This document shows, piece after piece, positions 4,199 to 37,431 of a DNA stretch of 37,431 nucleotides. The stretch covers positions 1 through 37,431 of the IMG/VR virus record IMGVR_UViG_3300002091_000013, one strand, 5' to 3'. Under the pieces are notes generated by a model. The model worked only from the letters and a program-made list of their open reading frames with translations, had not been told where the DNA came from and searched no databases. The position numbers and the translations under genes were made by a program. The stretch is from a virus. The number at the start of each line of letters is the position of its first letter. Position 1 is the first letter of the stretch.

Positions 4199-7100
4199 GT
4201 GACTACTATAAATGCAGTTGGTACATCATTATCCGGACAAACCGGGACAGGTGCTTTTGCGGGCTCCGTTAGTCCTACTTTAACTACACCAATTATTGCT
4301 CGAATTAATGATGCCAGTGGAAATGCCCAGTTAAACTTTACTTCAGAGCCATCTGCTGTAAATTATGTAAACATTTATAACACTTCAACTGGTAATGGGT
4401 TAGCCATAAATGCTCTCGGCGCTGATACTAATATCGGCATTGCATTAGGTGCAAAAGGTACTGGTGTAGTTGCTTTAGATACACAAGCATTAACTAACCA
4501 ATATCAATTTACATCCGGAACATCATTTGTTCATACATCGGTATTTAATTTCCCTGTTACCGCTTTAACTAGAACTTACACATGGCCTGATGCTGATGGA
4601 ACTGTTGCCTTAGCGAGCTCACCTTTATCTGGTTATGTTTTATTGTCCCCAAGTGGGAACCAAACAATTACAGATCATGATTTATATTTATCATTAGGGT
4701 CATTTCATTCTGGATCCCCCGCCGGTGGTGTTAACGGAAATTTTACAGCTTATCCCACAACTGCAAATAGTGGTTTTATAGAAATAATTGCAAATACCAA
4801 CTCGTCCGGAAACTTTGGAGTTGTCATTTTACCCACAGGTTCAATTGCACAGACACAAACATTATCAATTCCAGACGCAGGACAAGCTTCATCAACATTC
4901 ATCCTAAGCACATCTGGCTCAGGCCAAACAATTGGGGGTGGATTAACTGTTAATGGAGGATTAACTCTCGGGACCCCTTTAGCTCCAACCAGCGGAGGAA
5001 CAGGAACAGCAACAGCACCAAGTGCGGGTCAGATTCCAATTGGTAATAATGGGGGAACTTATACGCCGGCAGCGATTAATTCCGGAACCAATATTACAGT
5101 TGCGAATGGCTCTGCTTCAATAACTGTAAATTTATCTGGTGTAATTTCCCCTACATTAGGGGGAACAGGCGTAAATAATGGTTCTAATACGCTGACCTTA
5201 GCCGGAACTTTGGCTACAAGTGGTGCGTTTGCGTCAGTATTTACAATGACAGGCGCTACAAATGTTACATTTCCAACTAGTGGCACGTTGGCAACTACCG
5301 CCGGAACTGTCAGTTCAGTTTCAGGAACATTAAATCGTATTACGTCCACCGGTGGCACTACTCCTGTTATAGACATATCCGCAAGTTATGTTGGCCAATC
5401 TTCCATTACAACTCTTGGAACAATCACAACAGGAGTATGGCAAGGAACATTAGTTAGTCCAATTTATGGCGGAACAGGGGTTAACAATGGCTCTAATACA
5501 TTAACTTTGGCTGGAACATTGGCAACAAGTGGCGCATTTGCATCTGTATTTACTATGACGGGTGCCACAAATGTCACATTCCCAACATCAGGAACACTTG
5601 CTACGACTGCTACAGCCTCCGGTATCGTAAATTCCGGATTACAAAACCAATTAACTTGGTATGCTGCTAGCGGCACTACTGTAAGCGGATTGGCTACGGC
5701 TAACAATGGATTGCTGGTTACTTCATCCGGTGGCGTTCCCAGTATTGGCAATGCTATTGGCGCTGATATCACCGTCAGTGGTGCTACAGTTGGTTTAGGT
5801 GGAAGCGCTGTCACAACCAATTTGGCTGTAGGCGTTTCAGCATTGGCGGCTAATACTAGCGGCGTACATAACCATGCATTTGGTTATCAAGCAATGCAGG
5901 CTATGCAAACTGGTAACAATAACACTGCTGTAGGGTATTTAGCCTTAAATGCTAATACAAACGGTACAGGTAACGTTGCAATAGGTAGATTGGCGTTACA
6001 AGCTGGCGTAAGCGGTAGTAACAACGTTGCGGTTGGTTCTGGCACCATGAATAGTGCCAGCTTTAACTCATCACAGAATAATGCGCTTGGCACAGGTGTA
6101 TTGGCCTCATTGACTACTGGTAATACCAATACATCAATGGGTAACAATAGCTGCCCTCTAATCACAACAGGAAATAACAATACTGTCTATGGTGCAAGTG
6201 CTGGTGGTATATTGGTTGGTGGTTCTGACAATACTCTCCTAGGAACAGGGGCCACTACTGATAGTGCATCGTGTTCCGGTGCTATAGCCATTGGTGAAGG
6301 TGCTACTGCTACGATTGCTACTGGTGTCACTTCTGCTGATGCAGGCCCAGGGATTGCAATTGGATCATCTAGTTTTCCAGTCGGTTTTAGAGGTAATGGA
6401 ACTATTTACCCAAGCTCTTCAGGTGCAGGATTTTGGCGAGCTAAGATAAACGGAACGCAATACTTTATCCCACTATTTGCCGATTCATCTACTTCAAGTG
6501 GTGCTGTATTATTAAATCCTGCTGCCGCACAAACTATAGCTACTTATCCATTGAATCTTCCAGGTAGTGTTTATAGCCCTGCCATTTTAGATTCAAATGG
6601 CGCGAATATGCTGACTTTTGTTACATCCGCATCAGCCGTTAATTATTTTAATATGTATAATTCTCCGGCTGGTAGCGGATTAATTTTTCAAGCGTTAGGT
6701 GCTAGTACAGACATTAACGTTGGAATTTATTCTAAAGGCGCTGGGACAATAAGTCTTAATGCATTAGGCTCTACTAACCAAATCCAATTTACTACTGGCG
6801 GCGGTGGTGTTCATACATCATTGTTTAATTTCCCCGCAACATCAGCATCGAGAACTTATACTTATCCAGATGCTACGGGAACTATGCTTATCTCAGGAAC
6901 CGCGATTAATTCGGTTCCAAGCATTACATTTAGTTCAACATCAGGAATTATAGGAACCACAACGAATGACAGTGCTGCGGCTGGAAGTGTTGGTGAAGAA
7001 GTGCAAAGCATTGTAACACGTGCTTCTGGTGGCGTAAGTTTGACCAACGCAACGTCTGCGGATATCACAAGCATTAGCTTAACAGCTGGTGATTGGGATG

Positions 7101-7384
7101 TCTGGGGAAATATTGGAGTAAGCGGGAATGGCGCAACAACAGTTGTGTATGTCTATGGATGGATAAGTTCAACCTCCGCTTCTACCCCAGATGCCGCATA
7201 TCAAACACAGTGGTCTCAAGCTATTGGAACAGCAATTTTTAGCGCTGGTAATATTGGGTTCCCAGTTCCTGGTCGAAGATTTAGTTTATCAGGAACAACA
7301 ACAATATATTTATCAGTAAATAGCCAGTTCGCGGTTTCAACTGAATTCGCATTTGGTGGCATTTACGCCAGACGAAGACGTTAA
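4199..7384 (+). CDS. Large modular tail fibre/spike-like protein, 1061 aa, GTG start
   Basis: Gly/Thr/Ser/Ala-rich ORF with RBS AAGGGTG before the GTG. It contains internal repeats and duplicated modules (see findings). Confidence 0.85.
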   Translation: MTTINAVGTSLSGQTGTGAFAGSVSPTLTTPIIARINDASGNAQLNFTSEPSAVNYVNIYNTSTGNGLAINALGADTNIGIALGAKGTGVVALDTQALTNQYQFTSGTSFVHTSVFNFPVTALTRTYTWPDADGTVALASSPLSGYVLLSPSGNQTITDHDLYLSLGSFHSGSPAGGVNGNFTAYPTTANSGFIEIIANTNSSGNFGVVILPTGSIAQTQTLSIPDAGQASSTFILSTSGSGQTIGGGLTVNGGLTLGTPLAPTSGGTGTATAPSAGQIPIGNNGGTYTPAAINSGTNITVANGSASITVNLSGVISPTLGGTGVNNGSNTLTLAGTLATSGAFASVFTMTGATNVTFPTSGTLATTAGTVSSVSGTLNRITSTGGTTPVIDISASYVGQSSITTLGTITTGVWQGTLVSPIYGGTGVNNGSNTLTLAGTLATSGAFASVFTMTGATNVTFPTSGTLATTATASGIVNSGLQNQLTWYAASGTTVSGLATANNGLLVTSSGGVPSIGNAIGADITVSGATVGLGGSAVTTNLAVGVSALAANTSGVHNHAFGYQAMQAMQTGNNNTAVGYLALNANTNGTGNVAIGRLALQAGVSGSNNVAVGSGTMNSASFNSSQNNALGTGVLASLTTGNTNTSMGNNSCPLITTGNNNTVYGASAGGILVGGSDNTLLGTGATTDSASCSGAIAIGEGATATIATGVTSADAGPGIAIGSSSFPVGFRGNGTIYPSSSGAGFWRAKINGTQYFIPLFADSSTSSGAVLLNPAAAQTIATYPLNLPGSVYSPAILDSNGANMLTFVTSASAVNYFNMYNSPAGSGLIFQALGASTDINVGIYSKGAGTISLNALGSTNQIQFTTGGGGVHTSLFNFPATSASRTYTYPDATGTMLISGTAINSVPSITFSSTSGIIGTTTNDSAAAGSVGEEVQSIVTRASGGVSLTNATSADITSISLTAGDWDVWGNIGVSGNGATTVVYVYGWISSTSASTPDAAYQTQWSQAIGTAIFSAGNIGFPVPGRRFSLSGTTTIYLSVNSQFAVSTEFAFGGIYARRRR
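5159..5302 (+). repeat. Copy 1 of the 48-aa perfect protein repeat GGTGVNNGSNTLTLAGTLATSGAFASVFTMTGATNVTFPTSGTLATTA
   Basis: Hand translation in the frame of the 4199 gene. Confidence 0.95.
5468..5611 (+). repeat. Copy 2 of the 48-aa perfect protein repeat (synonymously recoded)
   Basis: Same 48 aa located 309 nt downstream. 31 of 48 codons differ from copy 1 and all differences are synonymous. Confidence 0.95.
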
Positions 7385-36415: not shown

Positions 36416-37431
36416 ATGGGAATTAGCGGATTGATTCCTCAAACCAAGATGCCTATTGATAACTTCAATAATCAGTTTGAGCAGTTAATGCAACAAATAG
36501 CTCGTCATCGCCAAACGAATAACCAAGAGCGTCAACTTGAAGATACAGCCAAGTTCCACGCCCAAGATTTGGCTTTACGGCAAGCTGCCGGTAGACGTGC
36601 CGAACAGCAGATGGACCCAATGTACAAAGTCAATCAACTGAAAGCCATGATGAAAGGTTTGCAGGATATGGCTAATGGAACTACCCCAGATGAAAATAAT
36701 GCCCCACAAGATAGCGGGAACATGGGGAACCAGGGAACAGCTGCTCCAGGAATGCCTCCATTAGCACCTGATAACAGTGGTAATCCAGGTGTTTCAGCTG
36801 AAGGCCCTGGATTTATACCAGAAGGACAAAGCCCATTTGTAGGTCGTGCTGGTTATAAGCCACCGAAAAAGGGAACACATCCCATGGATCAAGAAGTCAT
36901 GCCCGGCATTACCTTAGAAGATGTTGCTCGTCATGCGTTTGGATTGCCTGCTAAGTCTACAAAAGAAACGCCAGAACAAAGACAAGCACGTGATATCGAA
37001 ACGAATCAAGCGAAACTAGAACAGAAAGCCGCGTATGATCAACAACAAGCCGAACAAAAGGAAGTTAAAGCAGTTGAGAAAGATATCCCAACGCTCCATG
37101 AATCTATCAAAGGCGTACAGGATTTACTGAAGATTGCTAAGGAAAACCCTGATATGTTTGGCCATGGTTTTATGCCTGATCGCTACGCCAAAACTAGCAA
37201 GAACAAGAACTTCGGTACTTGGCAGAACTTAATTGCTGACAGAATTGCAGGCCTTGAGTCTAAACTATCATCGCGCGGTAACATCGTAGCACTGAAGATG
37301 GCATCTCAATTGAAACCGAGTCATGCTGATCAACAACAAGTCGCTGTTGGAAAGCTCGAATCAATGCTAGGCCAATTACAACGACAACTGCAAACTTCCA
37401 TGAAGAAAACAGGCAAGATGGGTGGCGAAGT
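36416..37431 (+). CDS. Junction-spanning virion protein gene (5' part; total 370 aa when joined to 1..198)
   Basis: ATG at 36416 right after the upstream TAA. The frame is open to the window end and continuous with 1..198 through the 101-bp overlap. Confidence 0.65.
   Translation, partial: MGISGLIPQTKMPIDNFNNQFEQLMQQIARHRQTNNQERQLEDTAKFHAQDLALRQAAGRRAEQQMDPMYKVNQLKAMMKGLQDMANGTTPDENNAPQDSGNMGNQGTAAPGMPPLAPDNSGNPGVSAEGPGFIPEGQSPFVGRAGYKPPKKGTHPMDQEVMPGITLEDVARHAFGLPAKSTKETPEQRQARDIETNQAKLEQKAAYDQQQAEQKEVKAVEKDIPTLHESIKGVQDLLKIAKENPDMFGHGFMPDRYAKTSKNKNFGTWQNLIADRIAGLESKLSSRGNIVALKMASQLKPSHADQQQVAVGKLESMLGQLQRQLQTSMKKTGKMGGE
37331..37431. repeat. Terminal overlap copy 2 (identical to 1..101)
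   Basis: Same 101 bases as 1..101. Confidence 0.95.

Follow-up and report, generated by a model that had tools for sequence, protein, structure and literature searches.

A strongly conserved 48-residue connector module, present twice with scrambled codons in a phage tail-fibre gene

The tail-fibre gene of the uncultivated phage IMGVR_UViG_3300002091_000013 encodes the same 48 residues, GGTGVNNGSNTLTLAGTLATSGAFASVFTMTGATNVTFPTSGTLATTA, in two places, and the codons used for them differ between the two copies at most positions. Receptor-binding fibres of phages are normally a fast-evolving protein class. Why, then, is a fibre segment kept identical in protein and so different in DNA? A preliminary description of this genome (hereafter the window, meaning the whole stretch of 37,431 nucleotides (nt) that was analysed) had offered three answers, namely extreme purifying selection on the segment, selection to lower DNA identity so that the copies cannot recombine or slip, and acquisition of the second copy from a diverged relative. 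Our analysis makes it probable that the repeat consists of two old copies of a strongly conserved modular fibre connector, kept by purifying selection and united by recombination between phages. More specifically, purifying selection would fix the amino acids and leave the synonymous sites to drift to full saturation. The copies would be old relatives at the DNA level. Instead of a recent duplication that was then recoded, their most likely source is recombination, at or within the module, between fibres belonging to different phages. The gene and the two copies are located as follows (aa, amino acids):

4199..7384, plus strand: tail-fibre gene containing both copies, 1061 aa, GTG start (list of open reading frames, PHROG matches and homologues)
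5159..5302, plus strand: copy 1 of the 48-aa conserved connector module (translation and codon-by-codon comparison)
5468..5611, plus strand: copy 2 of the 48-aa conserved connector module (translation and codon-by-codon comparison)

Codon divergence between the two copies

Both copies are read in one frame of the fibre open reading frame (ORF), copy 2 beginning 309 nt (103 codons) after the first base of copy 1. They differ at 35 of 144 nt (75.7% DNA identity) and in 31 of 48 codons, all of these differences being synonymous and including the switches CTG/TTA at codon 12, AGT/TCA at codon 41 and TTG/CTT at codon 44. Re-translation bears out every detail of the repeat as it had been described. 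By codon position, 31 of the differences are at third, 3 at first and 1 at second positions; by type, 20 are transitions and 15 transversions, with all four bases involved. Protein identity stops sharply at both ends of the module (ISPTL versus VSPIY upstream, GTVSS versus TASGI downstream), and an identity over 48 residues cannot be a matter of chance. The longest DNA run common to both copies is 8 nt. The expectation that DNA-level repeat finders would underrate the pair was likewise correct, as neither a DNA repeat finder nor Tandem Repeats Finder reported it.

The extent of the divergence was compared with a null model in which codons for the 48 residues are drawn independently twice, using the codon usage either of the genome's large ORFs or of the fibre gene minus the repeats. 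The expected number of differing codons is 31.7 ± 3.2 with large-ORF usage or 29.6 ± 3.2 with fibre usage (observed, 31), and that of differing nucleotides is 36.5 or 33.9, respectively (observed, 35). Divergence equal to or greater than that observed arises with a probability of 0.40-0.69 under independent codon draws. Likewise, the longest common run of 8 nt, for which 11.7-12.9 nt would be expected, is not significantly short (P = 0.13-0.24). At four-fold degenerate sites the copies differ at 24 of 32 positions (0.75), and the saturation level calculated from the codon-usage table is ~0.69. Because the observed codon differences equal the expectation from independent draws, the synonymous sites of the copies are saturated without being over-dispersed, and their DNA is no more similar than an identical protein written in random codons. 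This scrambling of codons shows that selection has long acted on the protein, and is no sign that the DNA was deliberately recoded. The codon usage of both copies is typical of the genome; a foreign origin of one copy on the grounds of codon usage was accordingly rejected, both copies looking native.

Two antisense ORFs of 105 and 118 aa (5059-5376 and 5464-5820, minus strand) lie across the repeat copies. With synonymous sites saturated in the sense frame, these ORFs are unlikely to be constrained, and they are probably a by-product of a sense frame rich in Gly, Thr and Ala.

Conservation and spread of the module

Four unrelated phage contigs encode the window's peptide with 0-1 replacements and 27-39 synonymous nt differences. 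Their divergence from the two copies is listed below, the fetched loci being designated by L numbers:

L081/L103: 0 aa differences; 27 nt to copy 1, 30 nt to copy 2
L182: 1 aa difference; 30 nt to copy 1, 29 nt to copy 2
L183: 1 aa difference; 36 nt to copy 1, 39 nt to copy 2
L184: 1 aa difference; 36 nt to copy 1, 31 nt to copy 2

All 27 nt differences between L081 and copy 1 are synonymous. Over six lineages, pairwise differences at four-fold sites amount to 0.56-0.84, that is, to saturation, with 3 replacements in total. With the lowest pair set at ~1.1 or more substitutions per four-fold site, and on the assumption of a star tree, these counts yield a rough estimate of ~0.01 or less for the ratio of non-synonymous to synonymous substitution rates (ω) in the window's module variant. 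Very strong purifying selection therefore acts on the protein of the 48-mer, and the first of the three proposed answers holds. The two copies within the window are diverged to the same degree as copies in separate phages: the fraction of differing synonymous codons is 0.66, compared to a between-phage mean of 0.68, and each copy is nearer in DNA to copies of other phages (27-30 nt) than to its partner (35 nt). Because the same peptide recurs in unrelated phages with saturated synonymous sites, the conserved protein with scrambled codons is a property of the module variant across phages, not of the window genome.

The true repeat unit is 103 aa long and comprises the 48-aa module followed by a 55-aa spacer:

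5303..5467, plus strand: 55-aa spacer module (GTVSS...NRITSTGGTTPVIDISASYVGQSSITTLGTI.TGVWQG...), second half of the 103-aa unit, conserved across phages

This spacer is also conserved (6-15 of 55 aa differ between phages, with four-fold sites saturated) and is the commonest neighbour of the module on both its downstream and its upstream side. Homologues of the fibre number 2306, many of them on phage contigs of 35-43 kb; among the 120 best, 109 carry the module, in 1-11 copies each that are often ~103-104 residues apart. When a profile of the unit was searched against 1.84 billion protein representatives, 6921 representative clusters matched at E ≤ 1e-3, of which 3577 passed E ≤ 1e-10, and a single protein had as many as 24 matched stretches.

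Curated collections gave no counterpart of this family. On the repeat region, Pfam has nothing even at E ≤ 1, NCBIfam has no model at E ≤ 0.01 and PHROG has none at E ≤ 0.001 (one weak match, phrog_21751, has E = 0.005), and no PDB sequence matches it by single protein or by profile. A protein search with the bare 48-mer produced two short, irrelevant matches only. Neither megablast of the fibre gene nor tblastn of the repeat region matched any GenBank phage, a result that may be due in part to the low-complexity filter. The exact 48-aa peptide is rare: its fully degenerate back-translation matched 0 Joint Genome Institute (JGI) metagenome contigs and 1 contig in IMG/VR, that of L081/L103. Module copies are in general diverse: 195 copies, sampled to keep only those with at most 16 differences from the window peptide, comprise 185 distinct peptides, and any two copies differ at a median of 9-11 aa.

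In genomes the module is found mainly in Bacteroidota (Sediminibacterium, Chitinophagaceae, Larkinella, Aquirufa and Pedobacter), which suggests a host range; the phages that carry it probably infect Bacteroidota. Loci L187-L260 place the module on contigs binned mostly as Bacteroidota and also as Saccharibacteria, Acidobacteriota, Alphaproteobacteria and archaeal metagenome-assembled genomes. Some of the contigs in odd phyla are probably mis-binned phage contigs.

Mosaic flanks and the origin of the pair

The 48-mer joins fibre modules that can be exchanged for one another. Across the family, 15 upstream and 24 downstream flank types surround it in many combinations (194 copies). The window's variant occurs with two upstream (U) and four downstream (D) types, in the arrangements U0-M-D0, U1-M-D1, U0-M-D3, U0-M-D1, U1-M-D0 and U1-M-D4, where M denotes the module. 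Three segments of the window are relevant here:

5069..5158, plus strand: upstream module of type U0 (AAINSGTNITVANGSASITVNLSGVISPTL), joined to copy 1 and also found before the peptide in L081 and L182
5612..5766, plus strand: downstream module of type D1 (TASGIVNSGLQNQLTWYAASGTTVSGLATA...), also found after the peptide in L182 and L184
5531..5611, plus strand: recombination patch at the 3' end of copy 2 (fibre codons 445-471), where 15 of 81 nt differ from L102

Homology between phages breaks at or inside the 48-mer. For the blastn blocks shared with L081, L182, L183 and L184, a start or an end falls within a few nt of a module edge. Counted in nt of the gene, block edges lie at 961 (L183 and L184), 1106 and 1270 (L182), 1112 (L081) and 1413 (L102). 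DNA homology with L081 is confined to window positions 5069-5310, and a block shared with L182 extends from the first base of copy 2 to gene nt 1568.

A breakpoint inside copy 2 is seen in the sister phage L102, which has 90-98% DNA identity to the window across aligned blocks. Copy 1 has no differences from L102, and fibre codons 142-444 are nearly identical in the two phages (2 of 909 nt differ). In the last 81 nt of copy 2, 15 nt differ, affecting 10 codons synonymously and 2 non-synonymously; compared to the preceding codons 142-444, this patch is significantly diverged (Fisher P = 1.6e-15). Homology to the L102 fibre then ends exactly at 5611, the last base of copy 2, and a different module follows. 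That module (L102 11417-11673) is 76% identical to window 4625-4881 and is a second copy of a module present upstream in both fibres (residues ~143-228), an instance of re-use within one fibre. A further mosaic patch relative to L102 is found at window 4433-4621 (fibre codons 79-141), flanked by near-identical sequence; its 11 non-synonymous and 24 synonymous codon differences in 63 N-terminal codons suggest another recombination tract.

The arrangement in L182, U0-module-D1, equals the window's fibre minus the 103-codon unit: upstream of its single copy it aligns with the context of copy 1, and downstream with the context of copy 2. L184 has the same two-unit architecture as the window, but 11 aa differ between its copies. 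The preliminary description had named ordinary divergence of the copies in homologues as evidence that would speak against it, and L184 is such a case. Acquisition of the second copy from a diverged relative, the third proposed answer, is plausible and fits the mosaic structure. Among the 260 fetched loci, the best match to the 3' half of copy 2 with its downstream module is 75% identical, so that none of them is a near-identical donor.

How the two copies came to lie in one gene can be explained in other ways. An ancient duplication in place, within the fibre lineage and under purifying selection only, would need neither copy to be imported. Tandem 103-aa units are indeed common, the 309-nt spacing recurs in L022-L026, L102, L119, L123 and L184, recent in-place duplications are seen in relatives, and the codon usage of both copies is native. 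We nevertheless consider this origin unlikely, as each copy is closer in DNA to copies of other phages than to its partner, the upstream module of copy 1 is common to L081 and L182 and the downstream module of copy 2 to L182 and L184, the first copy of the identically arranged L184 is another variant (the 11 aa differences mentioned above), and the sister phage reveals ongoing recombination inside copy 2. From these observations we infer that the copies were assembled by shuffling. Alternatively, the copies might have to match each other within the fibre, whether through the same binding partner or through mutual packing, with selection homogenising the protein. Pairs with at most 2 aa differences make up 10% of within-protein pairs and 0.9% of between-protein pairs, and there is covariation between module positions 17 and 27 (odds ratio 17, P = 3e-5, uncorrected for phylogeny). 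Such co-adaptation is hardly credible, however, since the within-protein excess is due to recent duplications of low synonymous divergence (L043, L185 and L186), the copies differ in L184 and, by 2 aa, in L102, and most multi-copy fibres contain clearly different copies.

A different kind of explanation, and the second of the proposed answers, is that a duplication was followed by selected synonymous changes so that the 144-nt copies can no longer recombine or slip and delete the 103-codon unit. That the longest common run is 8 nt, less than homologous recombination usually requires, would agree with this, as would the failure of DNA repeat finders to see the pair. In a weaker form, two-unit fibres may persist longer once their copies have diverged in DNA. 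This explanation is very unlikely, because the number of differing codons matches the neutral expectation at saturation, the longest run is not significantly short, and copies in separate genomes, which experience no such pressure, are equally diverged with 0-1 aa changes. Furthermore, L185 and L186 each keep protein-identical copies in one gene that differ at only 2-3 nt, which shows that nearly DNA-identical neighbours are tolerated. In a comparison of 293 module copies from 261 sources, synonymous codons differ less often within genes (mean 0.51) than between phages (0.68), and pairs at the 309-nt spacing do not exceed the between-phage level (Mann-Whitney P = 0.61); a slight excess in the Nei-Gojobori proportion of synonymous differences (pS) in 309-nt-spaced pairs vanished in a larger matched comparison. 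The single unit, supposedly the harmful deletion product, occurs naturally in the predicted fibre gene of the L182 contig. Selection to lower DNA identity, as proposed in the preliminary description, is therefore not borne out. It is also improbable that two-unit fibres are stable over evolutionary time only when their connector copies are already scrambled at synonymous sites, with codon divergence acting as a second-order stabiliser of repeat number and the connector kept at ω ~0.01 by the need to fit dozens of exchangeable neighbours. If this were true, the connector would be a universal adaptor at the protein level, and recombination without long DNA homology would yield working fibres.

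Several observations weigh against two old connector copies brought together by recombination between phages. At saturation, a distance of 27-30 nt compared to 35 nt separates shuffling only weakly from ancient duplication in place. Young duplicates in relatives give a rough ω of ~0.06-0.2 from pair counts, so that the constraint is not uniformly extreme. Exact identity is rare in the family and the window pair lies in its extreme tail, and the window's variant is documented in only a handful of lineages; exact identity is a tail event, yet it needs no within-genome mechanism. The structural role, too, is putative: the AlphaFold2 monomer model is poor, and the module has no solved or curated relative. 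The model, computed for residues 262-500 with a 46-sequence alignment, has a mean predicted local distance difference test (pLDDT) score of 64.8 and a predicted template modelling (pTM) score of 0.34. Module segments score best in it (~80), without tertiary contacts, and Foldseek of the model against the PDB gave meaningless matches only. In sequence, the module consists of four alternating strand-like segments with glycine turns between them. The constraint would be that of a structural joint which must fit many partner modules, and this joint probably sits in a trimeric shaft.

Known systems and genome context

The closest system in function is the shuffling of T-even phage adhesins around conserved motifs, with the His boxes of gp37 and the glycine-rich motifs (GRMs) of gp38 as recombination junctions (Tetart et al. 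1998 and Trojet et al. 2011, as cited in PMC12032242). Conserved motifs alternate with variable segments in T-even fibres, and the glycine-rich motifs are proposed hotspots for modular exchange. As in gp37 and gp38, the module described here alternates with interchangeable flanks (15 and 24 types over 194 copies), and homology breakpoints between phages coincide with it (L102, L081, L182, L183 and L184). The resemblance does not extend to sequence: at the thresholds given above, Pfam, PHROG, NCBIfam and PDB sequences reveal no homology of the module to His boxes, GRMs or curated fibre repeat families. The module is also longer, at 48 aa or, with the spacer, 103 aa. It also lies in a shaft-like part of the fibre of a P22-like phage with a probable Bacteroidota host, unlike the monomeric T-even tip adhesin. 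Finally, unlike in T-even phages, the synonymously saturated module copies offer no long DNA homology for exchange, and recombination is read here from sequence comparison.

A second parallel is offered by cellular proteins. For polyubiquitin and histone H4, identical proteins with large synonymous divergence have been argued (Nei et al. 2000, as discussed in PMC10457151) to reflect purifying selection and not homogenisation. The repeat pair has the same signature, with 0 of 48 aa and 31 of 48 codons differing and four-fold divergence (0.75) at about the saturation level (~0.69). Conservation between genomes likewise equals that within the genome, and the window lineage has no sign of concerted evolution. 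As in polyubiquitin, the number of units varies through recombination between repeats, as seen in L182 versus the window. Ubiquitin and histone H4 are core cellular proteins, whereas the conserved unit here is a 48-aa piece of a phage receptor-binding fibre.

Diversity-generating retroelements are marked by mismatches confined to the adenines of one copy and by a reverse transcriptase nearby. Their template and variable repeats are similarly two copies of ~100-150 nt tied to a phage tail-fibre gene. We rejected a pair of this kind, because the differences are all synonymous and spread over four bases and both copies are in frame in one ORF. Pfam detected no reverse transcriptase in the ten large window ORFs (smaller ORFs were outside that scan), nor is one present in the gene lists of the fetched relatives.

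The combination of identical protein and scrambled codons is thus fully explicable by strong purifying selection, and no special recoding mechanism is needed. The module, which is absent from curated databases, acts like a universal joint to which exchangeable fibre modules are attached. It is a candidate new domain family and a natural candidate for the splice point in engineered chimeric fibres, and it could serve as a marker with which to follow the exchange of modules among uncultured phages. What is new here goes no further than a widespread fibre repeat family that is uncurated, together with the clear evidence for its role at module junctions.

The window is a complete phage genome of ~37.3 kb. 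Its nt 1-101 and 37331-37431 are identical (a 101-nt terminal overlap), which means either a circular assembly or terminal redundancy. Scanning the ten large ORFs against Pfam identified a P22-like portal and coat protein, a collar-domain tail protein, a lysozyme, a helicase and a VapE-like primase. Cultured phages are only distantly related, with coat protein identity of at most 29%. The fibre ORF comes after the tail genes, following that of the collar-domain tail protein, and outside the repeat it is matched by PHROG families of tail fibre and virion structural proteins. A second internal duplicate, here called module A, is present in the same gene:

4304..4630, plus strand: module A, first copy (residues 36-144), 49% aa identity to residues 796-904
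6584..6910, plus strand: module A, second copy (residues 796-904), from internal protein comparison

Module A comprises 109 residues, and its copies share 49% of their aa and 72% of their DNA over a 76-nt core. In contrast to the 48-aa pair, this pair shows the ordinary decay of an internal duplicate in the fibre gene.

Fibre residues ~520-720 (window 5750-6360) consist of short repeats with a period of ~17 residues, resembling NTAVG or NVAIG. This run, which resembles a beta-helix or head-repeat region, matches phrog_6002, annotated as 'virion structural protein'. In L182, a small gene just downstream of the fibre gene (L182 4797-5003) encodes an Acb2/Tad1 hairpin domain, which belongs to a family of anti-defence sponges.

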